Positions 3,668-58,700 of a stretch of DNA of 64,000 nucleotides are shown here, piece by piece. The notes under the pieces are model-generated. The model worked only from the letters and a program-made list of their open reading frames with translations. It made no database searches and had not been told where the DNA came from. The stretch lies in NCBI GenBank assembly GCA_964291675.2, contig OZ219865.1, forward strand, positions 480,001-544,000, read 5' to 3'. A program made the translations under genes and the position numbers. Within the stretch, counting starts at the first letter, position 1; every line of letters starts with the position of its first letter. The DNA is from Alphaproteobacteria bacterium. Its GTDB lineage: Bacteria > Pseudomonadota > Alphaproteobacteria > MPNO01.

Positions 3668-4732
3668 ATGGCCGCGAGGCCGAACAAGTCTGCAACCGGA
3701 CAAACGGTGGAATCGGCGACGGGCGAGAGGTCCGGCAAGTCCGCCAATGGCGGCGCGCGCCCGGCCCGCGCCGACCCGGATGAGTTGATCGATTTCTACC
3801 GCCAGATGCTGCTTATCCGGCGCTTCGAGGAGCGCGCGGGACAGCTTTACGGCATGGGGCTGATCGGCGGGTTCTGCCACCTCTATATCGGCCAGGAAGC
3901 CGTGGTCGTCGGCATGCAGGCGTCGGCCGGACCCAGGGATGCGCTGATCACCAGCTACCGGGATCACGGCCACATGCTCGTCTGCGGCATGGATCCCAAG
4001 GGCGTGATGGCCGAGCTGACCGGGCGGCGCAGCGGCTATTCCAAGGGCAAGGGCGGCTCGATGCACATGTTCAGCCGCGACAAGAACTTTTTCGGCGGAC
4101 ACGGCATCGTCGGCGCCCAGGTGCCGATCGGCACCGGCGTCGCCTTCGCCCAGAAATACCGGGACGACGGCGGGGTGACGGCGGCCTATATGGGGGACGG
4201 GGCGCTCAACCAGGGTCAGGTGCACGAGGCGTTCAATCTCGCCGCGCTGTGGTCTCTGCCGATCGTGTTCGTGATCGAGAACAACCGCTACGGCATGGGC
4301 ACCTCGGTGGACCGGGCTTCTGCCCTGACGGACCTCTACCGGATCGCCGAGCCCTACGGCATCCCGTCGGCCCAGACGGACGGGATGGACGTGCTGGCCG
4401 TCAAGGAGTCCGGCGCGGCCGCGATGGCGCATTGCCGCGCCGGTGAGGGGCCGTACGTGCTCGAGGCCCTGACCTACCGCTACCGGGGGCATTCGATGTC
4501 CGACCCCGCCAAGTACCGCAGCAAGGAAGAGGTCGCGGAGATGCGGACCGAGCACGACCCGATCCAGAACCTCCGGGACCGGCTTGTTGCGATCGGGTCG
4601 GTCGACGAGGAGGCGCTCAAGGATATCGACCGCGATATCAGGACGATCGTCGCGGATGCCGCCGAGTTCGCGCAAAACAGTCCCGAGCCCGATCCCAGCG
4701 AGCTCCTGACCGACGTGCTGATCGAGGCCTGA
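3668..4732 (+). CDS. pdhA: Pyruvate dehydrogenase E1 alpha
   Basis: GFCHLYIGQEA, GKGGSMH, GDGA..QGQ TPP motif, YRYRGHSMSDP. Confidence 0.97.
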   Translation: MAARPNKSATGQTVESATGERSGKSANGGARPARADPDELIDFYRQMLLIRRFEERAGQLYGMGLIGGFCHLYIGQEAVVVGMQASAGPRDALITSYRDHGHMLVCGMDPKGVMAELTGRRSGYSKGKGGSMHMFSRDKNFFGGHGIVGAQVPIGTGVAFAQKYRDDGGVTAAYMGDGALNQGQVHEAFNLAALWSLPIVFVIENNRYGMGTSVDRASALTDLYRIAEPYGIPSAQTDGMDVLAVKESGAAAMAHCRAGEGPYVLEALTYRYRGHSMSDPAKYRSKEEVAEMRTEHDPIQNLRDRLVAIGSVDEEALKDIDRDIRTIVADAAEFAQNSPEPDPSELLTDVLIEA

Positions 4733-4750
4733 CCGGCGCGGGTGTCCGAG

Positions 4751-6082
4751 ATGCCGATCAACATCCTCATGCCGGCACTGTCACCGACGATGACCGAGGG
4801 CAATCTTGCCAAGTGGCGCAAGAACGAGGGCGATCCGGTGAGCTCCGGCGAGGTCATCGCCGAGATCGAGACCGACAAGGCGACGATGGAGGTCGAGGCG
4901 GTCGACGAGGGCGTGCTGGGCCGGATCGTCGTGCCGGAGGGCTCGGAAGGGGTGGCGGTCAATTCGATCATCGGCGTCCTGCTGGTGGACGGCGAAGACC
5001 CCTCGTCGCTCGCCAGGGCCGCGCCGTCGAACGGCAGCGCCGCCGCGCAAATTTCGGCCGCCGCGGCGCCGCCCGAGAAAGAGGCGCCGCAAGGCGAGAC
5101 CGTTCGCCAGACCGTGCGCGAAGCGCTGCGCGACGCGATGGCGGAGGAGATGCGTCGCGACGAAACGGTTTTCCTGATCGGCGAGGAGGTGGCCGAGTAC
5201 CAGGGCGCCTACAAGGTGAGCCAGGGCCTGCTGGAGGAGTTCGGGCCGCGCCGCGTGATCGACACCCCGATCACCGAGCACGGCTTCACCGGGCTCGGCG
5301 TCGGTGCGGCGTTCGCCGGGCTGCGGCCGATCGTCGAATTCATGACCTTCAACTTCGCCATGCAGGCGATGGATCAGATCATCAATTCGGCGGCCAAGAG
5401 CCTTTACATGTCGGGCGGCCAGATCTCCGCGCCGATGGTGTTTCGCGGGCCCAACGGCGCCGCCGCCCGGGTCGCCGCCCAGCATTCGCAGAACTACGCC
5501 AGCTGGTTCGCCCATGTCCCGGGACTCAAGGTGGTCTCGCCCTATAGCGCGGCGGACGCCAAGGGGTTGCTGAAATCGGCCATCCGCGATCCCAACCCGG
5601 TGATATTTTTGGAGAACGAGATCCTCTACGGCGCCTCTTTCGAGGTTCCGGCGGTCGACGATTTCATCGTGCCGATCGGCCGGGCGAATATCTGCCGCGC
5701 CGGGTCGGACGTCACCATCGCCGCGCTTTCGATCGCCGTCGGCCACGCGCTCGACGCCGCCGAGGCGCTGGCCGGGGAGGGGATAGAGGCCGAGGTGATC
5801 GACCTGCGGACGATCCGGCCGCTGGATACCGCGACGCTGGTCGAATCGGTGAAGAAGACCGGCCGCCTGGTCTCGGTCGAGGAGGGCTGGCCGTTCGCCG
5901 GTATCGGCGCCGAGCTCGCCGCGGTGACCATGGAGCAGGCCTTCGACTGGCTCGACGCGCCGGTAGCCCGGGTGACCGGAGCCGACGTTCCGCTGCCCTA
6001 CGCCGCCAATCTCGAACGACTCGCGCTCCCCCAGGTGGACGACGTCGTGCGCGCCGCCAAAGACGTGCTGTACCGAGACTGA
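4751..6082 (+). CDS. pdhB: Pyruvate dehydrogenase E1 beta with N-terminal lipoyl domain
   Basis: [14 protein letters not shown] lipoyl domain, [20 protein letters not shown]. Confidence 0.96.
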
Positions 6083-6113
6083 ACGCGCCCATTCTCCCAA
6101 GGCAGGATCCCCG

Positions 6114-7346
6114 ATGCCGATCAATATCCTGATGCCGGCACTGTCGCCCACCATGACGGAGGGAAACCTCGCCAGATGGCTCAAGGCGGAGGGCGATGCC
6201 GTCGAAGCCGGCGATGTGATCGCGGAGATCGAGACCGACAAGGCGACGATGGAGGTCGAGGCGGTCGACGAGGGGGTGCTCGGCAAGATCGTCGTGCCGG
6301 AGGGCTCGGAAGGGGTTGCGGTCAATGCGGTGATCGGCGTCCTGCTCGCCGAGGGCGAGGACGCGGCGGCGATCGGGGAGACGCCGGCGCCGGCCCAGGA
6401 GCCCGCCCCGGCGGCGGAACCGGAGCCGCAACCCACCGCCGCGCCGCCGCCGGCGGCGGCCCCTGCCGCGCCCGGGGAGCGCATCGCCGCGAGTCCGCTT
6501 GCCCGGCGCATGGCCGCGCAGGCCGGGCTCGACCTCGCCGCCTTAAGCGGCAGCGGAACCGGCGGGCGGATCGTCAAGGCGGATATCGATGCCGCGCTCG
6601 CCGCCGGACCGGCCCTCGCCGAGCCGGTGCGCGCGCCGCCCCGCCCCGCCGCCGCGCCGGCCCCGGGCGAGACCGTCAGGCTGTCGACCATGCGCCGCGT
6701 GATCGCCGAGCGGATGGCGGAGTCCAAGGCGACGGTGCCCCACTTCTACCTCACCGTCGACTGCGAGATCGACGAGCTGCTCAAGGTACGGAGCGAGATC
6801 AACAGGCGGATCGAGACGGCGCGGATATCGGTCAACGACATCGTCATCCGGGCCTCGGCGCTCGCGCTGCGGGAGGTTCCGGCCGCCAACGTGTCCTGGG
6901 CGGGCGAAGGCTCGATGACGCAGCACGGCACGGTCGACGTCTCGGTCGCGGTGGCGATCCCGGGCGGGCTGGTCACCCCGATCGTCAGGAACGCCGACGC
7001 CAAGGGCCTGGTCGAGATCGCGACCGAAATGAAGGCGCTCGCGGCGCGGGCGCGCGAAGGCAAGCTGATGCCGGAGGAGTACCAGGGCGGCAGCTTCTCG
7101 ATCTCCAATCTCGGGATGTACGGGGTCAAGAGCTTCGATGCGGTGATCAACCCGCCGCAGGCCTGCATTCTCGCGGTCGGCGCGGGAGAACCGCGGCCGG
7201 TGGTCCGGGACGGTGCGATCGTTCCCGCAACCGTCATGTCGTGCACGCTGTCGGTCGACCACCGCGTGGTCGACGGGGCCATCGGCGCCGAGCTGCTGGG
7301 CGCGATCAAGCGGAACATCGAATACCCGCCGGCGATGCTGGCCTGA
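6114..7346 (+). CDS. pdhC: Dihydrolipoamide acetyltransferase (E2)
   Basis: Lipoyl domain, Pro/Ala linker, ASPLARR E3-binding domain, DHRVVDG catalytic motif. Confidence 0.96.
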
Positions 7347-26291: not shown

Positions 26292-26327
26292 ACTCGCTGA
26301 CCTTCGAATCCCGGCTACCTTGTGGTC

Positions 26328-26741
26328 ATGGAGGACAAGCCGGAACACAGGGTCGAACACCTGAAAATGGTCCAGGCCGTGATCGCGCGTCTGTCCAACC
26401 TCGGCGCGCGGGTCAAGACGTGGACCATCACGCTTGTCGGAGCGGTGTTCGTCTACGCTGCGGCGACGGGCACACAAGATATAGTGATAGTCGCGGCCGG
26501 ACTTGTCCTCGTCGTGCTGCTTGGGCTGCTGGATGCCAGGTATTTGTTCGTCGAAACGTGTTACAGGGAGCTCCACAAGGCGATCGCCTCCGGGAAGCCC
26601 GTCAAGCCTTTCGATATGGATTATCGTCCCTACGTGCGTTCGGCCCGTAGCATCGGGTGGGTCGCCCAGTCTCGGACCGTTCTCGGCTTCTATGTACCGG
26701 TCTTTGCTATGGTCGTCATCTTGGGGACGCTCGAAGTCTAG
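26328..26741 (+). CDS. Small multi-pass membrane protein of unknown function
   Basis: HLKMVQAVIARL..KTWTITL, LDARYL..E..YR pattern, three hydrophobic segments, lower GC than its neighbours. Confidence 0.65.
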   Translation: MEDKPEHRVEHLKMVQAVIARLSNLGARVKTWTITLVGAVFVYAAATGTQDIVIVAAGLVLVVLLGLLDARYLFVETCYRELHKAIASGKPVKPFDMDYRPYVRSARSIGWVAQSRTVLGFYVPVFAMVVILGTLEV

Positions 26742-27550
26742 GAGTCTGGGTCTTTCGACCCCGGGCGGGCTTCGCGCTCCCGCCGCTTTGCGGCCTCCCA
26801 GAGCGCGTCCATCTCCTCCAGCGTCGAGTCCTCGGGCGCCTTGCCGGCTTTCGCAAGACCGTCCTCTACGGCATTGAAACGGCGGACGAACTTGTCGTTG
26901 CAGTCGCGCAGCGCCTGTTCCGGGTCGATGCCGAGGCGGCGGGCGACGTTGACGCAGGCGAACAACAGGTCGCCGACCTCTTCGGCCTGCGCGGCGCCGT
27001 CGCCGCCGTCCTCGATGGCCTCCTTGAGCTCGCCGAGCTCCTCGTCGACCTTGGCGAGCGTCGCCGCCATGTCGGGCCAGTCGAAGCCGACCCGGGCCGC
27101 GCGCTCCTGGAGTTTTCGCGCGCGCAGGAGCGCGGGGAGGGCGAGGGCGACCCCGTCGAGTGCGGAGGCGCGCTCCGCCTTGGCCCGGCGCTCGCGCGCC
27201 TTGATCGCCTCCCAGCCGTCGCTCCCGTCCTTGGCGTCGCCGAAGACATGCGGATGGCGCCGGTACATCTTCCCGGTTATGCCGCGCGCCACGGAGTGGA
27301 AATCGAACGCGCCGGCCTCGCGCGCCATCTCGGCGTGGAACACGACCTGGAGCAGGAGGTCGCCGAGCTCTTCCTCCAGCGCCGCCAGATCGTTCCGCGC
27401 GATCGCGTCCGCCACCTCGTAGGCTTCCTCGATCGTATAGGGCGCGATCGTCGCAAAAGTCTGGACCGCGTCCCACGGACAGCCGCTCTCGCGGTCCCTG
27501 AGCCGCGTCATCAGGCGCAGCAGCGCCTCGATAGGGGGAACATCGTCCAT
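26738..27550 (-). CDS. mazG: Nucleoside triphosphate pyrophosphohydrolase MazG
   Basis: GCPWD..QT, IEEAYEV, EELGDLLLQVVFH, GFDWP, EEVGDLLF. Confidence 0.96.
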   Translation of the reverse strand: MDDVPPIEALLRLMTRLRDRESGCPWDAVQTFATIAPYTIEEAYEVADAIARNDLAALEEELGDLLLQVVFHAEMAREAGAFDFHSVARGITGKMYRRHPHVFGDAKDGSDGWEAIKARERRAKAERASALDGVALALPALLRARKLQERAARVGFDWPDMAATLAKVDEELGELKEAIEDGGDGAAQAEEVGDLLFACVNVARRLGIDPEQALRDCNDKFVRRFNAVEDGLAKAGKAPEDSTLEEMDALWEAAKRREREARPGSKDPDS

Positions 27551-27579
27551 CGGCCGCGCCCGCTCGATCATGCCCCGAC

Positions 27580-27607
27580 ATGTCGCATAATATATCTTAT
27601 GGAGACT
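27580..27607. other. Candidate chromosomal dif site (XerCD recombination site)
   Basis: ATGTCGCATAA-TATATC-TTATGGAGACT, 11-6-11 layout with CGCATAA/TTATG core; KOPS polarity reverses around it. Confidence 0.8.
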
Positions 27608-27779
27608 CATGAACCACGCTGGCCAAATATGTCGATTGAGCGCGGGATGTCCACGCAGAATTCGACAGTTGCCAAAGAAGATGCGAACGGGCGGAGAAAT
27701 CGCCCTGACGAAGATTCGTATTTCGACGTTGCGGATCGAGTCGCGCCGCCTGTCAAGACCGGTAATTTCGCCGCCGGCG

Positions 27780-28340
27780 CGTACAAGACAGAGCAAGGGA
27801 CGCGTGAAGGCTGGGGTTCCGGTTGGGATCGCAGCGGCGGGTCCGTCCGCGTCCTCGGGCGGATCGGCAGTCCCGGGCAGGCGATGTTCGTCGCCCTCAC
27901 CCACCTTCTCGATGCCGACCATGCGAGTTGCAAGCGGCATTTTCACCGATTCCGGCAACGTCTCGCGCGGCGCGTGGAAACTGGACGACCAAGCGCGCCA
28001 CGCCTCGTTTCCATGTGGTGTCGTGGGGCCGCGGCGGGCTGCTGGCGGACAAGGAATGGCTGTCCCGGGCGTGGTACGAGCGCGTCGGCTCGGGCAACCC
28101 GAATTACCTGCTGCCCGGCACCGGGGTCGAAGCTGGGGCGTACTCGGCAAGCGGGGATTGGCGATTTTCAGGGTGCGCCGGGTGTGGCTGACGCGCGACG
28201 GCATGGACCTGGTGCTCGAAGGACTATCCGAATCGGATCGGCGGCTTATGCGGGTGCCGCCTGAGCGGTGGGTGTCGTGGCGCGCGAGGCGCTGGAAGCT
28301 CGTCCGGAATCCGGAGGGGCCGGTATCCGGACGATGGGAT
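27780..28340 (+). pseudogene. Frameshifted rolling-circle replication (HUH) initiator remnant
   Basis: Collinear fragments in three frames: MFVALT, CKRHFHRFRQRL, AWKLD, KRATPRFHVVSWG, WLSRAWYERVGSGNP..GTGVE, GRSWGVLGK; boundaries approximate. Confidence 0.6.
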
Positions 28341-28406
28341 TCGAAATGTCGTTGCGTTTTCGCCGAGACTCGGGGAGCATCGCGGCGTTTGAAGTCATGG
28401 AGACTG

Positions 28407-28458
28407 GAATCTTAAGGATTGAGCGGGCTCGCCAGAGCCTGGTCAATCCTTAAGATTC
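28407..28458. repeat. Long hairpin (16-bp perfect inverted repeat with inner stem)
   Basis: GAATCTTAAGGATTGA (28407-28422) and TCAATCCTTAAGATTC (28443-28458) enclosing GGCTC-GCCA-GAGCC. Confidence 0.85.
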
Positions 28459-28532
28459 TCGGACTTGTACGGAAGTGGCGGATTCGGCCTCGAAATGCCG
28501 CCAGGTCCTGCCGGGAGATTGAAGGAAAGCCC

Positions 28533-28745
28533 ATGGCAACCGAGTTCGACACGCTGGAAGCAGCGAAGGACCTTGAGAAGGCGGGGTTCGAGCGGGACCA
28601 GGCGGAAGCGCTGGCGAACGCGATGCGCCGGTCGGGAAGGGCCAGGATCGGGCATTTGGCGAGCAAGGCCGATCTTTACCAGGTGGCGATCGGCATCGTG
28701 GTCGCCAACGTGGGGCTGACAACGGCCTTGGTGAAGCTCCTGTAG
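28533..28745 (+). CDS. DUF1640/CCDC90-like small membrane protein
   Basis: FDTL...L.KAGF..DQAEAL head, LASKADL motif, C-terminal TM; GAAGGA RBS; 70 aa. Confidence 0.75.
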   Translation: MATEFDTLEAAKDLEKAGFERDQAEALANAMRRSGRARIGHLASKADLYQVAIGIVVANVGLTTALVKLL

Positions 28746-28915
28746 GGGTGAGGTGTCATTTCGCCTTCGAGGGCCCCGGTTCGAGTTTCTTCGTCCGAAT
28801 TTTCAGCGGGAGCAACGGCGTCGGCCCGGCCATGCCTTGAGAGTCGGGCCGGGCCGACGCCGGGCTTGTCATCAGTGAACATATTGTATTCTCAATGAGT
28901 TATCGCCAAACGATC

Positions 28916-29686
28916 CTATGGCGTTTCAAGCCGCATGCCGTCATAGGCCGGCTCCACGTCGTCCGGCGTTGCCGCCTGCATCGCCGCGTAATCCGCGTGG
29001 TGGTTCATATGGGTCAGGATCGCGCGGCGCGGCGCGACGCGGTCGAGCCAGGCGCGGGTGACCGGCCAGTGCGCGTGCGTCGGGTGCGCGCGTTCCAGCC
29101 GCAGGCAGTCGACGATCCAGGTGTCGACGCCGGCGAGGCGGTCGAAGCTCGCCTCCGGGATACGCACCACGTCGGTCGAATAGGCCAGGCCGGCGAAGCG
29201 AAAGCCGGTCGAGGCGCAGATGCCGTGGTCCTGGTCGAACGGCACCACCGGACGGCCCTCGACCTCGAACGGCCCGTCGACGACATGGCGGCGCAGGAAC
29301 GGCGGATAGTTGCGCGCGGGACCGCTCGCGCCGTGGAAGAGATAGGGAAACCGGCTCACGATCTCGTCGAGCACCGCGGGCTCGGCATAGACCGCGATAT
29401 CGCGGCCCATCTCGCGGGCGATGCCGCGCAGGTCGTCGATGCCGTGCACGTGGTCCGCGTGGGCGTGGGTGAACAGCACGGCATCGACCCGGTCGATCCC
29501 GGCGTCGATCGCCTGGTCGCGAAGATCCGGCGCGGTGTCGACCAGGATGTTGACGCCGTCCCATTCGACGAAGATGGATGGCCGGCGGCGCCTGTTGCGC
29601 GGGTCGTTCGGGTCGCAATCGCCCCATCTTCCGCCGATCATCGGCACGCCCTGGGAGCTGCCGCAGCCGAGAACGGTAACCTTCAT
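28916..29686 (-). CDS. MBL-fold metallo-hydrolase (PhnP/YycJ-like)
   Basis: LGCGSSQGVP, THAHADHVHGIDD, LTHMNH; follows tatD. Confidence 0.93.
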   Translation of the reverse strand: MKVTVLGCGSSQGVPMIGGRWGDCDPNDPRNRRRRPSIFVEWDGVNILVDTAPDLRDQAIDAGIDRVDAVLFTHAHADHVHGIDDLRGIAREMGRDIAVYAEPAVLDEIVSRFPYLFHGASGPARNYPPFLRRHVVDGPFEVEGRPVVPFDQDHGICASTGFRFAGLAYSTDVVRIPEASFDRLAGVDTWIVDCLRLERAHPTHAHWPVTRAWLDRVAPRRAILTHMNHHADYAAMQAATPDDVEPAYDGMRLETP

Positions 29687-51778: not shown

Positions 51779-52619
51779 CGATCTCGATTTCGGCCTCTAC
51801 CGGATCATGGCCATGAAGGCGGGCGAGATCGAGGCGTTTCTCGATCGCGACCTGCTGCCCCAGGTGAAGGAGGTCCTGGCGGGAGTCGCGGACGAGGATC
51901 GGATCGCGCTGGAAGAAGCGCTCGCGGAAGCGCGGCAGCGGGCGCGGCAGTTGGGAGTCGACCCCGAGGAGACACCGAAGGTCCGGAAGCTTCGAGCCAA
52001 ATTGGCGGCGCCGAAGGCCGACGCGGACGCCGAGGCCGCCGTCTACGGCCATCTCGCCACCTTCTTCGCCCGCTACTACCGCGAGGGCGACTTCATGTCG
52101 CTGCGGCGCTATGCGGGCGGCGGGCGGACGACCTATCTGATCCCCTACGACGGCGAGGAAGTGAAGCTGCACTGGGCCAACGCCGACCAGTACTACATCA
52201 AGACGACCGAGAGCTACGCTTCCTACGCCTTCGCCGCCGGCGAGGGCGAGGCCGCGCGGCGCGTCCGATTGGAGATCGCGGCCGCCGACAACGAGAAGGA
52301 CAACGTCAAGGCGGCCGAAGGCAAGCAGCGCCGCTTCGTGCTCGCGCAAGGCGGCGACGCCATCGCCCACGACGGTGCCGATCTGGTCGTCCGCTTCGAG
52401 CACAGGCCGCTCACGGACGCCGAGAAGAAGACGTGGCCCGGCAACGGCGCGCGGCAGCAGGAACGGATCGACGAGGCGTCTGCGGCGCGGGTGCTCGGTA
52501 CGCTCGATGGGGACTGGCGGGCGCTGCTGGCCGCACCGGCGCCGACCGAGACCGATCCCGAACGCACGCTGCTGGCAAAGCACATCGCGCGCTACACGGC
52601 GAAGAACAGCTTCGACTAC

Positions 52620-52651
<32 letters not shown>

Positions 52652-54910
52652 CCGCGAGTTCGATCTCTACCTGAAGACCGAGGTCCTGAACCTCGACGAC
52701 CTCGCGGCGGGCGACGCCGACCGGCTGCGCCGCGCGCTGGCGCGGATGCGCGCCGTCCGCCACGTGGCGGAGAAGATCGTCGCCTTCCTCGCGCAGTTGG
52801 AGGATTTTCAGAAGCGCCTCTGGCTCAAGAAGAAGTTCGTGCTGGAGACGCAGTGGTGCGTGACGCTGGACCGCGTGCCCGAGGCGCTCTGGCCCGAGAT
52901 CGCCGCCAACGAGGCGCAGCGCCGGGAATGGGTGGAGCTGTTCGCCATCGACGAGGTCGCGGGCGATCCTGACGGCCGCGGTTCGGGCGATGGGCCGTTT
53001 CTGTTCGAGGACGCGTCCGCGCGCTACGGCGACGAGATTGGCGACGGCGAGCCGCTGAGCGCGGCGTTCCTGAAGGGCAACACACATCTGGTGTTGGACA
53101 CGCGCCATTTCGACACGGGCTTCCGCGACCGGCTGCTGGCGGCGCTTTCCGATGCCGGGCCGCTCGACGAGCAGACCGATGGGCTGCTGATCCACGGAGA
53201 GAACTTCCAGGCGCTGAACCTGTTGCAGGCGCGGTATGCGGGGCAGGTGAAGTGCGTGTATGTCGATCCGCCGTACAATACAGATTCGTCACCCATAATG
53301 TACAAGAACGATCTAAAGGATTCATCCTATTTGTCATTGATGGAAGATCGCTTACGCCTTGCAAAATCGATTCTTATGAACAATGGGATTCTGTGCTGTG
53401 CGATAGATGATGAAGAGGTAAATAATCTACGTATCCTGTTGAGTCAGGTATTCGATAAGGAGATCGGCATTGCTCCTGTTCGTTCCACACCAATTGGTCG
53501 GACTTCCCGTGGCAAGTTATCACCAACGCATGAGTACGCATTATTTTATGGAAGCAACGGTGCTGTTCCTGGATCGCTAGAGAAAACAGAAAAACAAAAG
53601 GACCGCTATCCTTATTCCGATCGGCAAGGAAGATATGCTTGGCGTAATCTTATTCGTACCGGGACAAATGATCTTCGGGTTGACAGGCCGAAACAGTACT
53701 ATCCGATCTATGTCGGTGCTGACAACAAGCTACGTATTCCCAAAATGAAGTGGCGCGAAGATGAATTAAAATATGAAATCCTGGAGCATGCTGCCGAGAA
53801 TGAGACCGTGGTTTGGCCTATTGGCGGCAACGGTGGAGAGAAAATAGAAAAGCGCTGGGAGCGCGGTTGGGAACGAGTAGCGAAAGAAATAGAGATTCCA
53901 AATGAGTATCGCGTACGAAGAGAGGTGGACGACACTGGAGAGGAGAGGGTGCACATTGACTTCGTTCAACGCATGGATCCATCTTCAGCACCCAAGACCT
54001 GGTGGGGGGATGCAAAATACGCGTCATCCAACTACGGTGCCATGGTCCTAAAGGACCTTTTTGGGGCGAGCTCATTCGACTTCGCCAAGTCGGTATCCTT
54101 AGTGAAGGATTGCATTCTCGCATCTGGAGGCGGTGAAGAGAGGACTCAAGTAGTCGACTTTTTTGCCGGCTCCGGCACCACCGGCCAAGCGGTCATAGAC
54201 TTGAATCGGGAGAACGGCGGTGAACGCAAGTACATCCTAGTGGAGATGGGCAACCATTTCGACACTGTAATGCTTCCGCGTCTCAAGAAGGTCGCCTATT
54301 CCCCTGACTGGAACGCAGGCAAGCCCGTCGCGCGCGACAAGGGCGTGTCGCACCTCGTCCGCTATGTCCGCCTCGAATCCTACGAGGACACGCTGGACGG
54401 GCTGGTCCTGGCGCCGCCGGAGGGCGACCTGCTGGCCGGGAGCGCTCCCGCGTTGGCAGAGGACTATCGACTGCGCTACGCGCTGGGCGCGGAAACTGCT
54501 GCCAGCCCCTGCCTGCTGGGCGGCGCCTTCGCCGATCCCTTTGCCTACACCCTCTCCGTAGTGCGCGACGGCGCGCGCCGCGAGACGCCGGCCGACCTCC
54601 CCGAGACCTTCAACCTCCTGCTCGGCCTGCGCGTCGAGTCCCGCCGCCGCATCGACGGCGTGCTCGCCATCGCCGGCCGGGATTCCCAGGGGCAACGCTG
54701 CCTCATCCTCTGGCGCAACCTGAAGACCATGGACAACGACGCGCTGGAGGGGTGGTTCGCCGGGCACAGGGCGTACCTCCCCGACGCGCTCGATCTTGTC
54801 TACGTCAACGGCGACCACACCCTGAACGCCATCCGCCAAGAGGACGAAACCTGGACCGCCGAGACCATCGAACCGCTGTTTCGCGAACTGATGTTCGAGG
54901 CCAACGAGCG

Positions 54911-55798
54911 ATGACGGCAGACAAGAATGGGGATTTCTACAAGCTGACCTTCTCCCAGCGTGAAGGAAAAGCGCCGTTACCCGAGGCTATGAAACTGGAA
55001 TATATCCCACGAAAATTCAGGCAACTCGTTTGGCTTTGTGTTGATAGATGTATAGGCGATGCAACTGATCTATTTACGTCGTCCTACAGAACAAACGAGA
55101 GTATAGCTGGGATACTATGGCGGTTTAGGTTTGAATTACAAGAGATTCCTCATGATGAGATTCCTGGTCCAAACCCAAAGAGTGACAGGAAATTTTGTCG
55201 AGATATAATTTTGCACGGAGATTATCACGGACTTCTGACATTTGTGGAGTACATTCTTCGCCAGGATGATTGTCCCGAGAAACTGCGGGAGTCACTGGTG
55301 AGCGAATTCGAGCGGACTCCGATTGCTTACTATGTGGATGCTGACGGTATGTCAACGATCATGCCGCGGATCAGTCGCGAGGCCGGTGAGGCAACACGAA
55401 AAGCCGTCGAGACAATCCGCGGAGGCGGCATGGACGGTGCGGCAGCGCATCTGCGTGATGCAGCAGAACACATTAGCGCCGGACAACATGCCGATTCGAT
55501 TACCGACAGCATTCACGCGGTCGAATCCGTCGCTCGCACGATCGACCCGAAGTCCAGCAAGACCTTGGGACCGGCGCTGGACTCCCTGGAGAAGGCGGGA
55601 GTCCTGAAACATCCGGCGCTCAAGCAAGCATTCGACAGGTTGTACGGCTACACGAACACCGAACAAGGCATCCGCCACGCCTTGCTCGACAAGGGCGCTG
55701 CCGATGTCGGCCTCAACGAGGCCATCTTCATGTTCGGAGCCTGCGCGTCCTTTGCAGCTTATCTCACCGAGAAGCACCGGCAGGCCGGTGGCGCATGA
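54911..55798 (+). CDS. AbiJ-like protein (NTD4-type N-terminus, HEPN-like C-terminus)
   Basis: FSQREG..P.P N-terminus; SIHAVES, HPALKQAF..LYGYT...GIRHA C-terminus; ATGA overlaps with both mod and res. Confidence 0.65.
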   Translation: MTADKNGDFYKLTFSQREGKAPLPEAMKLEYIPRKFRQLVWLCVDRCIGDATDLFTSSYRTNESIAGILWRFRFELQEIPHDEIPGPNPKSDRKFCRDIILHGDYHGLLTFVEYILRQDDCPEKLRESLVSEFERTPIAYYVDADGMSTIMPRISREAGEATRKAVETIRGGGMDGAAAHLRDAAEHISAGQHADSITDSIHAVESVARTIDPKSSKTLGPALDSLEKAGVLKHPALKQAFDRLYGYTNTEQGIRHALLDKGAADVGLNEAIFMFGACASFAAYLTEKHRQAGGA

Positions 55799-58700
55799 CG
55801 CCCCTCGAAAACCGCCTTGTCCTGCACAGCTTCCTCTGCCGCGAGTTCGGCCACGGCGACCTGGACGCCATGCTCGACCGACTGCGGGACGTACCGGCCG
55901 GGTTCGCCACGGGCGGAGAGAGCGAGTATGCGAAAGCACTCTACCTGAACCCGGAACGGGCCGAGGTCGCTCCTGACCGCTTCGCCGATTACGACGCGGA
56001 GATCGCAACGCTGAGCCAGCGGCTGCGCATGACCGCCGAGCACGGACGGGGTTGGAAGCCGCACCAGTGGCTCGCCCTGCTGTTCGCCGAGCACTACCTG
56101 CGCCGCTACTTCGACGACCCGGAGGCGCTGCGCGACGCGCTGAACGACGCGAAGCGGCAAGACCCGCTTACCCGGCCAATGCCGGACTACACGGTGGCGG
56201 ATCTGCGCACTGTCGCCGTGCAGTCCGCCACCGGCTCGGGCAAGACGCTGGTCATGCACGCGCACATCCTGCAATACCGCCGTCTCGCACGCGCGGCGGG
56301 ACGCCCGCCCAACAACGTCATCCTCGTGACGCCGAACGAGCAGCTTTCGGCACAGCACGAACGCGAGCTGCTGGCGAGCAACCTGCCCGCCCGGCTGTTC
56401 TCCAGCGAGGTCGGCGCCGACCTGCTGGCACCCATCGAGATCATCGACCTCAACAAGCTCGCGGAGAAGAAGGGCGTGAAGCGCGTCGCCGTGAGCGACT
56501 TCGGGGACAATAACCTCGTGCTGGTGGACGAAGGGCACCTCGGCGCCTCGGGCAAGGTCTGGCGCCAGCGCCGGGCGGAGCTCGCGCGCGGCGGCTTCGC
56601 GTTCGAGTACTCCGCCACCTTCAACCAGATCGTCAGCAGCGACGAGAGCCTGCGCGACGCCTACGGCAAGTGCCTGCTGTTCGACTACCCCTACCGCGCC
56701 TTCCACCGGGACGGCTACGGCAAGGACTACGCCATCTCCAACCTGCCGCAGGGGGCGGAGGACGAGAACAGCGACATGTACCTGCTGGGCTGTCTGCTGA
56801 GCTTCTATCGCCAATGCCGGATATGGCGCGAGGGGCACGCCGGCTGGACGGACTTCAACGTGACCCGACCGCTCTGGGTGTTCCTCGGCAAGACGGTGAC
56901 CGGCAGCGCCAAGGCGGATCGGGAGACCAGATCGGACGTCGTGCGGATTCTCGGCTTTCTCGGCTGGATGCTGGCCCGCAGCAACGCGGTGCAGCCGATG
57001 ATCGCACGGCTTCTGGCCGGCGAATCGGGCTTGGCCGACGACGCGGGCAGCGACTTCTTTGCGGGCCGCTTCGACGACCTGAAGGGCGACGGCACGGCGT
57101 CCCTCTACGACGACATCTGCGAGACCCTGTTCCACGGTCCAGGGCGGCTGCATGTCCGCTATTTGACCCAAGGCGAGGGCGAGCTCCACCTGCGCACCGC
57201 CGACAACGCGCCCTTCGGCGTGGTCAATGTCGGGGACTCGGCGGCGCTCTACAGGTTGCTGGCGGAGGGAAACCACCCCGATCTCGACCTCGAACGCGAG
57301 GTCGGGTTCGCCCGGCGGCTGTTCGCCGACGTGGACCGGACCGATTCGACCGTTAACGTGGTGATCGGTGCGCGGCGCTTCATCGCCGGCTGGAACTCCT
57401 GGCGCGTGAGCACCATGGGGCTGATGCATGTCGGCGTCGGCGAGGGGCCGGAAATCATCCAGATGTTCGGCCGCGGGGTGCGCCTGAAAGGCCGGGACAT
57501 GAGCCTGAAGCGCCACCGCGAGAGCGGCGTCGAGCCGCCCGCCGACGGCGACCGGCTGGCGGAGTTGGAGACGCTGCGTATCTTCGGCCTGCGCGCCACC
57601 TACATGCAGACCTTCCGCGAGCTGTTGCAAAAGGACGGAATCGGCGTGGAGCGGGAGACCGTCGTCCTGCCCGTGACCTGGAACTTCGCGCGGAAGGACC
57701 TGAAGATCATCCGGCTCAGGGAGGGCGCGAAGTACGACTGTTCCGACGACCGGGCCGTCCTGCCGGAACCCGGCGGCAGGGACAGCCCGACCGCCGAGCT
57801 GGACCTTTATTCGCGGTTGCAAGCCGTCGAGTCCGGCGTCGGGCCGGCCGCCGAGCGAGCGGAGAAGGCGCCGGTCACGCTCGCACGGCATCATGTCGCC
57901 CTGTTCGACCGGACGCGCGTCTACGACGCCCTGCTGGCGCGCAAGCGGCGGATGGGCTGGCACAACCTGGCCATCGACCGCGCGACTGTGGATGCGCTGC
58001 TGGACCGGGACGACTGGTACACGCTCTATCTGCCGCCGGAGCGATGCGCGCCGAAGAGCTACGCGGACCTGCGGAAGCTGGAGGAGGTCGCGGTCGATCT
58101 GATCGCCGAGTACGCTGCCCGATTCTGGACGGGCCGGCGCCGACGCTGGGAGCACGAGAACATCGAGGTCGTGACGCTCGACGAGGACGACCCCAACAAC
58201 ATCCGGGAATACCGGCTCTCGGTGGACGCGGCGGACGAGCGGTTGGTCGACGACGTCCGCTCCCTCGCCGCCAACCTGCGGGAGGGAGAGGACCGCAAGC
58301 TGAAGCTCGGCGTCGTCATGGCCGACAACCACGCGTACAAGCCCCTCCTGTACGCGACCGGGAAAGGCGAGGTCACCGTGCAGCCCGTGCCGCTGGACTG
58401 CAACGAGCGGAAGGTCGTCGACGGGCTGGTCGCGCTGGCGCGGGCGGCGGACCCCTGCCTGCGTGGGCGGGAGCTCTTCCTGATCCGCAACCTCACGCGA
58501 GGCCGGGGCGTGTCGTTCTTCGACGACTATGCCTACTACCCCGACTTCATCGTCTGGCTGAAGGACGACGCGTGCCAGCACGTCGCCTTCCTCGACCCGA
58601 AGGGCCTGGCCCGCTACGGCCCGGCGGAGCGCGGCAAGGTCGCATTGCACACCACCATCAAGGAGACCGAGGCGCGGGTGCGCATGACCGACCCGGACTT

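Follow-up and report, generated by a model that had tools for sequence, protein, structure and literature searches.

A probable decayed rolling-circle element held in the terminus dif site of a Defluviicoccus-like alphaproteobacterium

The DNA analyzed here is a stretch of 64,000 nucleotides from an alphaproteobacterium (assembly GCA_964291675.2, contig OZ219865.1, positions 480,001 to 544,000 of the forward strand), referred to below as the window. Between two minus-strand genes, mazG and a gene for a metallo-beta-lactamase (MBL)-fold hydrolase, lies a dif site of the recombinases XerC and XerD, and directly beside it are 1308 bp of DNA that ten close relatives lack and that contain the broken remains of a gene for a rolling-circle replication initiator (Rep). 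We argue that this DNA is most probably a decayed integrative mobile element exploiting Xer (IMEX). The features on which the argument depends, with attL and attR as the left and right ends of the insertion, are as follows.

26738–27553, minus strand: mazG (nucleoside triphosphate pyrophosphohydrolase), on the XerC side of dif; NCBIfam NF007113, E 1.7e-99, 332.5 bits against a cut-off of 208
27580–27607, plus strand: attL, the present dif, ATGTCGCATAA / TATATC / TTATGGAGACT
27608–28915: inserted DNA, 1308 bp, missing from 10 of 10 close relatives
27629–28415, plus strand: rep pseudogene (HUH rolling-circle initiator), in the phases 27629–27976, 27972–27992, 27985–28137 and 28119–28415
28899–28926, plus strand: attR, foreign GTTATCGCCAA / ACGATC / CTATGGCGTTT, then caagccgcatgccgtcatagg...
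28916–29686, minus strand: MBL-fold metallohydrolase gene (NCBIfam matches), stop codon at 28916–28918

For comparison, species-representative genomes were searched for MazG, which yielded 80 loci, and the ten nearest (L001–L010; MazG 65–95% identical) were taken as the close relatives. The nearest, L001, is a Defluviicoccus sp. metagenome-assembled genome (MAG) whose MazG is 95% and whose flanking DNA is 91.5% identical to that of the window; L002–L010 are Defluviicoccus or unnamed alphaproteobacterial MAGs (MazG 65–84% identical). The layout of dif is two 11-bp arms around a 6-bp spacer (PMC7062461). The only full dif-like site in the window is that at 27580–27607, whose XerC arm and spacer are identical to those of L001 and L002; L003–L009 differ at arm position 1 and L007 in the spacer too, and the XerD arm is unlike that of every relative. 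The motif GGGNAGGG, which is the FtsK-orienting polar sequence (KOPS) of E. coli, occurs to the left of the site nine times on the plus strand and never on the minus strand, and to the right of the insert once on the plus and 14 times on the minus strand, so that 23 of the 24 motifs outside the insert converge on the site. Since the polarity flips at 27580–27607, this position is marked as the true terminus dif. The XerC arm and spacer of attL are typical of the clade and its XerD arm is plausible; since KOPS-type motifs also point toward it, attL is presumably the working dif.

In all ten relatives, DNA matching the window up to about 27603 runs straight into DNA matching it from 28913 (blastn). 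The empty site of L001 reads ...ccgctcgatcatgcccc... ATGTCGCATAA TATATC TTATGGCGTTT caaaccgcatgccgtcatagg... (the flank after the XerD arm is also given as caaaccgcatgcc), and its left part recurs in the attL of the window as ATGTCGCATAA TATATC, continued by TTATGGAGACT and foreign DNA. At the other end, the XerD arm of attR (28916–28926, CTATGGCGTTT) is the ancestral chromosomal arm, matching TTATGGCGTTT of L001 at 10 of 11 positions and followed by the same flank, and the XerC-side arm and half of the spacer are element-derived and degenerate. The two junctions share the 9 nt ATC[T/C]TATGG (27594–27602 and 28913–28921), made up of the three spacer bases next to the XerD arm and the six innermost bases of that arm. 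The insert is thereby flanked by a complete dif and a dif-like attR in direct orientation, and alignment to the empty sites places the insertion and its exact junctions at the base-pair level. The sequence-only reading of this DNA had ended the segment at 28405, in a copy of the XerD arm considered below; that copy is internal, and the insert runs 510 bp further, to 28915. The possibility raised there that relatives carry the same DNA as a conserved intergenic region does not hold for the ten closest genomes, each of which has an empty site with dif intact. The insert has a GC content of 0.629, against 0.684 and 0.696 in the 10-kb flanks and 0.68 in the whole window, and by blastn it shows only short chance matches to the rest of the window and to the 80 mazG loci. 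Matches obtained with tblastx were scattered and non-collinear and were taken as GC-rich noise. On grounds of parsimony, the difference from the relatives would reflect one gain and not ten losses.

Translation of the plus strand of the insert in all frames recovers the following pieces of Rep, motif I and the HUH motif being placed by profile alignment.

27887–27901, plus strand: FVALT, remnant of motif I (family FVTLTYP)
27932–27973, plus strand: KRHFHRFRQRLARR
27972–27992, plus strand: AWKLDDQ
27991–28029, plus strand: KRATPRFHVVSWG
28006–28020, plus strand: RFHVV, eroded HUH motif (family HFHLL)
28057–28095, plus strand: WLSRAWYERVGSG
28117–28134, plus strand: GTGVEA
28125–28160, plus strand: GRSWGVLGKRGL

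Such a series of collinear Rep fragments across frameshifts had been proposed from the letters alone, and all of its members are present on the plus strand; their kinship to PF23343 proteins emerges from phmmer and profile searches. The 122-aa open reading frame (ORF) 27823–28188 gave 18 phmmer matches among 1.84e9 representative proteins (E 8.4e-6 to 7.8e-4), all confined to query residues ~47–111 (PRFHVVSWG...WLSRAWYERVGSG...GTGVE). Seventeen of these proteins contain the Pfam family PF23343 (REP_ORF2-G2P; Replication-associated protein ORF2/G2P) above its gathering cut-off, at 39.7–60.2 bits against 27.8; the remaining one (P0016, FG-GAP repeats), which lacks PF23343, was rejected as a false match. 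All six homologues scanned against PHROGs matched PHROG 3419, 'rolling circle DNA replication initiation'. The homologues follow the pattern FVTLTYP ... WK.dL.aF.kRL.R ... WKLEpQkRGAPHFHLl.WG and, further on, WLSraWYEVVGSGD.rHLrAGT.VE ... Y.sKYl.K ... GRfWG.

Two Rep profiles, one built from the 17 homologues and the other from 133 family members gathered with the first, were then searched against all 1221 stop-to-stop six-frame pieces of the window. With the 133-member profile, three overlapping frames of the rep region rank first to third (E 3.4e-11, 0.0047 and 0.18), with profile positions 112–157 falling on ...MFVALTH...KRHFHRFRQRLARR, 161–172 on AWKLDDQ, 169–216 on KRATPRFHVVSWG...GTGVEA and 242–272 on GRSWGVLGKRGL...; the 17-sequence profile places the same three pieces on top in the same collinear order, and neither profile finds a Rep-family match elsewhere in the window. 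The middle fragment is matched by 131 of the 133 family members at a domain E below 0.01. Its profile score is partly circular, as the profile members were gathered via this fragment; the N- and C-terminal fragments had no role in the gathering. These alignments identify the collinear fragments as the remains of an HUH rolling-circle Rep of the PF23343 type. Against longer proteins, the 122-aa ORF gave no match at E ≤ 0.001 among 602 candidates, which is weak evidence. The matches of the 17-Rep profile in the PDB were two de novo designed proteins and were set aside as spurious, so that no solved relative was recognized by sequence.

The rep gene would have begun with the ATG at 27629 and ended with the TAA at 28413–28415, and it is now read in three phases with at least three frame changes. 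A short deletion probably lies near 27975, where homologues are about eight residues longer between KRL.R and WKLE. At motif I the window has FVALTH, in which the T, Y and P that are invariant in the 17 homologues are altered, and in the metal-binding HUH motif the first histidine has become arginine (RFH), H252 and H254 being invariant in 17 of 17 homologues. Profile positions 217–241, the Y..KY..K block, have no counterpart in the window, and the profile matches on either side of them overlap on the DNA (28117–28134 versus 28125–28160); the block with the catalytic tyrosine has therefore been deleted, with a loss of about 90 nt at 28119–28134, as the sequence-only reading had suspected. To judge from these lesions, rep is a pseudogene descended from the PF23343 family and not a working member of it.

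The junctions and the state of rep suggest how the element may have arrived and died. A small circular replicon of the rolling-circle type, whether phage, satellite or plasmid, with a dif-like attP just upstream of rep, would have been integrated by the host XerC/XerD into the chromosomal dif of a Defluviicoccus-like alphaproteobacterium, with the exchange point within the 9 nt ATC/YTATGG, that is, in the 3' half of the spacer and the inner XerD arm. In this event attL would have retained the XerC arm and spacer of the chromosome while acquiring the XerD arm of the element, and would now serve as the dif of the cell. The opposite end, attR, would have kept the ancestral XerD arm, including the MBL stop codon, and would be left without a usable XerC arm. 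Because attR lacks this arm, the cell would hold one competent site only, excision would be blocked, and the trapped rep would have decayed through frame changes, the change to RFH and loss of the tyrosine block. Reconstructed from the left part of attR followed by the attL XerD arm, the attP of the element would read GTTATCGCCAA ACGATC TTATGGAGACT and would lie 22 nt upstream of rep.

XerC cuts one strand where its arm meets the spacer, and XerD cuts the opposite strand at the far end of the spacer. In attL and attR alike, the spacer is still joined to the XerC-side arm with which it came. Such a pattern would fit an exchange at the XerD border with subsequent replication, or a full two-step exchange with segregation of a heteroduplex spacer, and would not fit an XerC-only exchange of the CTX/VGJ type unless three adjacent spacer bases of attR mutated later. 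We regard the insert as a decayed IMEX trapped at dif, without a recombinase of its own and now inert as a mobile element, and give this reading a probability of roughly 0.85. Within it, the dependence of integration on Xer is likely by analogy with known elements, and trapping by the degenerate attR is suggested by the junction itself.

Four further features lie in the right-hand part of the insert.

28395–28405, plus strand: internal copy of the XerD arm, TCATGGAGACT, 10/11 to the TTATGGAGACT of attL (27597–27607), in the last codons of the rep frame
28407–28458: palindrome with 24-nt arms and a 4-nt loop, 92% complementary, relatively AT-rich, starting in the region of the rep stop codon
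28533–28745, plus strand: intact 70-aa ORF with a DUF1640/CCDC90-like N-terminus and a C-terminal hydrophobic helix
28816–28862: GC-rich perfect hairpin with 16-nt arms and a 15-nt loop, 100% complementary, downstream of the 70-aa ORF

The internal XerD-arm copy had been noticed in the sequence-only reading; at one mismatch or fewer the arm has two matches on both strands of the 64 kb, attL included, against 0.12 expected. The TCGC upstream of it, taken there as a trace of an XerC arm, did not survive inspection, being only 4 nt long and one base off register (16 instead of 15 nt upstream); when the register is kept, none of the 11 positions of the XerC arm agrees. The copy could be an old junction from a two-step integration, an accessory XerD site or a chance match. 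The palindrome, which is unique within the window, is a candidate replication origin, packaging signal or terminator hairpin; as single-stranded DNA, the 141 nt at 28340–28480 that hold it fold at -37.2 kcal/mol (z -6.2; 0 of 200 shuffles as stable). Rfam gave only four sub-threshold chance matches in 26500–29500 at E ≤ 1 and none at the gathering score, and a terminator scan of 27400–29000 found no sites, the hairpin at 28816–28862 being without a T-run.

The 70-aa ORF looks intact, judging by its third-position GC of 0.82–0.88 and a Shine-Dalgarno-like GGAAAG upstream, and may be a cargo or accessory gene of the insert. It matches PHROG 17872 (E 4.4e-8) and, under the cut-off of 33.5 bits, Pfam PF07798 (E 3.8e-6, 27.3 bits, model positions 1–40 of 175 only). 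It has seven relatives, the best of 71 aa and 67% identical, and PF07798 is precomputed in five of the eight proteins listed, the window's own included; five Bordetella phage records match at 41.5%. The ORF also contains the lone GGGNAGGG of the insert (28634, plus strand), which points away from attL, against the local polarity; this single occurrence is consistent with a foreign origin. Apart from this DUF1640-like ORF, no insert ORF on either strand matched any family of Pfam, PHROGs or NCBIfam, so that neither an integrase nor a transposase or resolvase was recognized; the insert may be incomplete, with loss of a recombinase gene possible. A search for inverted or additional XerC/XerD arms, as in a folded attP of the CTX type, returned only three-mismatch matches at chance level (~1.7 expected per pattern).

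Several observations weigh against a trapped IMEX as described. The assignment of the remnant to PF23343 is transitive, via the homologues, since no fragment has a direct match in Pfam, PHROGs or NCBIfam, even at E up to 10; for PF23343 itself, searches at E up to 10 and, in a second scan, up to 1 gave no match and no gathering score. The terminal fragments, N and C, carry little weight when taken singly (E 0.0047 and 0.18 in the set of 1221 pieces). In register, 3 of the 11 positions in the XerC-side arm of attR agree with the host arm, and 7 of 11 do so with a 1-nt shift; unless the decay came after integration, XerC would have had a poor substrate in the reconstructed attP. The sites of the relatives could also, in principle, be empty because Xer excised an element precisely, so that gain is the parsimonious reading rather than a proven one. 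No intact copy of the element was found in the 80 mazG loci or in phage or plasmid collections; the latter were searched with 27560–28470 (blastn, distant mode) and with the 122-aa ORF (tblastn), and no occupied site was recognized elsewhere, the Rep profile having no match and DUF1640 no relative in six-frame pieces of the 80 loci. Finally, the internal XerD-arm copy is unexplained if the insert is a single element.

This last point leads to the rival view that two elements integrated successively at dif, in the manner of TLC-RS1-CTX arrays, an older one (28406–28915, with the hairpin and the DUF1640 gene) having brought TCATGGAGACT and a later rep element occupying 27608–28394, with 28378–28405 as a true junction. 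IMEX arrays in which newcomers enter at the working dif are known (PMC4246890), and a direct 10/11 copy of the XerD arm is improbable within 1.3 kb (an estimated ~0.001–0.002 expected on that strand, scaled from the 0.12 for both strands of the 64 kb). The left unit would, however, be a bare rep gene without an origin and, once circularized, its rep frame would have no stop codon, the phase-0 frame being open over 27609–28415; the 96 codons from GRxWG to the stop (28413) fit the homologues (~70–100) only if the frame crosses the internal site into the palindrome. Moreover, the internal site is without an XerC arm in register, and the DNA to its left is unlike that to the left of attR. We therefore favor one element on balance and consider two doubtful. 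Far less credible, indeed very improbable, is that the likeness to Rep and the position at dif are unrelated and that the 1.3 kb are variable DNA from illegitimate recombination or some other mechanism. Terminus regions are generally variable, and no library hidden Markov model matches the fragments directly, but both junctions lie inside the 28-bp dif, share a 9-nt core where spacer and XerD arm meet, and leave an entire dif at the left end and the ancestral XerD arm at the right, which is the signature of site-specific exchange and not of random insertion; in addition, the Rep match reaches E 8e-6 in 1.84e9 proteins and 17 of 18 matches belong to one family.

If the insert is a trapped IMEX, its parent could have been a phage, a satellite or a plasmid. 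By tblastn, the Rep homologues match phage records labelled Inoviridae sp. (35–39% identity at best; among them is a circle of 3,063 nt) and an 8,460-nt Ralstonia phage record, in which the matching gene is annotated as a rolling circle DNA replication initiation protein. They also match numerous VP4 or replication initiator genes of microviruses, and small rolling-circle plasmids (846-bp Thermotoga, Rhodococcus, Streptomyces). Among the best 120 of 181 family members at E ≤ 1e-10 from a set of 5.8 billion proteins, 119 carry PF23343; 111 of the 120 lie on contigs of at most 7.1 kb and nine on contigs of more than 10 kb, and 15 are on contigs of 4.4–4.6 kb, which would correspond to the size of a microvirus genome. 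Together with the phage matches and with an attP 22 nt before rep, which recalls the dif motif that can sit at the VP4 N-terminus of E. coli gokushoviruses (PMC7062461), these sizes make it a serious possibility, somewhat short of even odds, that the insert is the relic of a full single-stranded DNA prophage (an inovirus, or a microvirus like the dif-integrated gokushoviruses) stripped of its structural genes by internal deletion. Yet Pfam and PHROGs revealed no capsid, coat, Zot/pI, scaffolding or assembly gene in any insert frame, the DUF1640-like ORF being the sole match; a capsid gene of the Microviridae VP1/F type (400–500 aa) has no room within 1308 bp; the insert is compact, with gaps of 74, 70 and 36 nt between its features, the last separating the hairpin from the start of attR, and without an obvious deletion scar; identity to classified phages is low (26–39%); and the same Rep superfamily serves small plasmids. 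The filamentous-phage origin offered in the sequence-only reading is thus not borne out, since Zot/pI and coat genes are missing and Rep relatives occur also in microviruses and small plasmids. In the 3,063-nt 'Inoviridae sp.' circle, the best relative in the phage collection, none of the six coding sequences has a Pfam match and dif-like sites occur only at chance level. Conversely, the insert, ~1.4 kb long prior to the rep deletion, could be a near-complete minimal IMEX (attP, rep, origin hairpin and a small membrane-protein gene) and not the remnant of a larger element, a tentative view that we consider rather unlikely. If true, dif would be occupied by a plasmid-like or satellite replicon smaller than any on record, with an attP that mirrors the TLCphi one (good XerD arm, degenerate XerC arm).

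The genes beside the insert bear on the peculiar form of this dif. The minus-strand genes of the window include metG, tatD, the MBL-fold hydrolase gene and mazG, and in the relatives the MBL gene ends within dif, ~30–250 bp upstream of the co-directional mazG. The end of the MBL gene overlaps the dif core in all ten, by 7 nt in nine of them and by 1 nt in L002. In the ancestral XerD arm, bases 1–3 are complementary to the MBL stop codon and bases 4–9 specify the final two residues; the outer part of the arm varies among relatives because it doubles as the last two codons of the gene. The stop codon is TAG in the window versus TAA in all ten relatives. As a side effect, the insert would have split this tight gene pair. 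The only sigma-70-like match in 27400–29000 lies in the left end of the insert and is directed toward mazG (27653–27626, minus strand, TGGACA-16-CATATT, 9/12; 0.3 expected), and this promoter-like site might replace mazG transcription lost to the split.

Across the 80 mazG loci, a dif-like site (≤6 mismatches to the 25-nt core) is present in 22, and in 16 of these it lies ≤250 nt from mazG. The order MBL hydrolase, dif, mazG is found in 16 of the 80 (L001–L010, L025, L028, L030, L035, L038 and L051), including MAGs labelled Rhizobiaceae, Magnetovibrio, Rhodospirillaceae and Devosia, and offers a handy landmark for locating dif in Alphaproteobacteria. In a more distant MAG, L019 (region 3922–6435), a dif-like match (5 mismatches) lies between genes for ectoine synthase and a class-III aminotransferase, 5 kb from mazG; the terminus may be arranged differently in that genome, or else this match is not its real dif. 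The interval between the match and mazG was considered as a mobile element and rejected, as it contains ectoine and cytochrome genes.

Two other regions of the window are variable or unusual in composition. Between a hydroxyacid dehydrogenase-like gene and mazG, the segment 26291–26773 (139-aa ORF 26322–26741, plus strand, without an NCBIfam family match) has no counterpart in L002–L009, and its counterpart in L001 is only 56% identical at the protein level despite flanks that are ~91% identical at the DNA level. It is a second variable spot adjoining the terminus. In 4-kb bins, 52001–56000 has a GC content of 0.601 against 0.66–0.72 elsewhere and may be another foreign segment.

The closest known parallels are elements that enter dif through the Xer recombinases of the host. 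Enterogokushovirus prophages of Escherichia (Microviridae) integrate at dif by XerC/XerD, and are described by Kirchberger and Ochman in 2020 (PMC7062461) as small rolling-circle elements without an integrase, located at dif between one conserved and one degenerate motif, with the attachment site near or within the 5' end of rep (VP4). By the tblastn matches to VP4 genes, their Rep belongs to the same broad superfamily. Those prophages are complete, 4.3–4.7 kb long, equipped with capsid genes and excisable, whereas the present element has no virion gene, a dead rep and an alphaproteobacterial host; in them it is chiefly the spacer and the XerD arm that diverge in the variable motif (PMC7062461), whereas here the XerC arm is degenerate. 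The IMEXs of Vibrio cholerae (CTXphi, VGJphi, TLCphi) are likewise rolling-circle replicons that enter dif via host XerCD and regenerate a working dif at one end (PMC4246890). Among them TLCphi, a small satellite that carries a replication module of its own, resembles the element here in that one arm of its asymmetric attP is good, although its degenerate arm is that of XerD and the arrangement here is the mirror image; the CTXphi attP, in contrast, is folded single-stranded DNA of two inverted sites (PMC4246890), none of which was found in the insert. From the Vibrio elements the present one also differs in its size of ~1.3 kb and in having no virion or toxin genes.

The sequence-only reading had noted that such elements are mainly described in gamma- and betaproteobacteria. 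A decayed alphaproteobacterial IMEX is what the evidence indicates, but a Xer-flanked single-stranded DNA prophage has already been described in that class: the Ebor microvirus of Rhodobacter capsulatus is a rolling-circle element integrated between dif motifs bound by XerCD (PMC11980548). Ebor is a complete and active virus that lies in the cbbII operon, away from the terminus dif, whereas the present DNA is a fossil in the true dif. No dif motifs were found in the case of alphaproteobacterial Occultatumvirinae prophages. That a unit of ~1–1.5 kb can be a complete replicon follows from the 846-bp Thermotoga plasmids (NC_006528, NC_023152), which are likewise built around one HUH Rep and which differ in being only distantly similar (tblastn 32%, E 1e-4). 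To our knowledge, integration of these plasmids has not been reported. The partial texts consulted on IMEXs, dif, Xer-dependent rolling-circle elements and Defluviicoccus prophages contain no description of the present element, whose less usual features are its small size, the degenerate XerC-side arm and a dif XerD arm that overlaps a stop codon.

The locus does not change the current understanding of IMEXs, and its arm asymmetry and very small size would become of interest only if an intact relative confirms them. What it would add is a case, resolved to the base pair, in which the terminus dif captured a rolling-circle element through Xer, in a little-studied and mostly uncultured clade (Defluviicoccus and relatives) in which ten empty sites let both junctions and the putative attP be read directly. 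In such genomes the final codons and the stop of a housekeeping gene lie within the ancestral XerD arm, and in the strain studied here the presumably working dif carries a foreign XerD arm.

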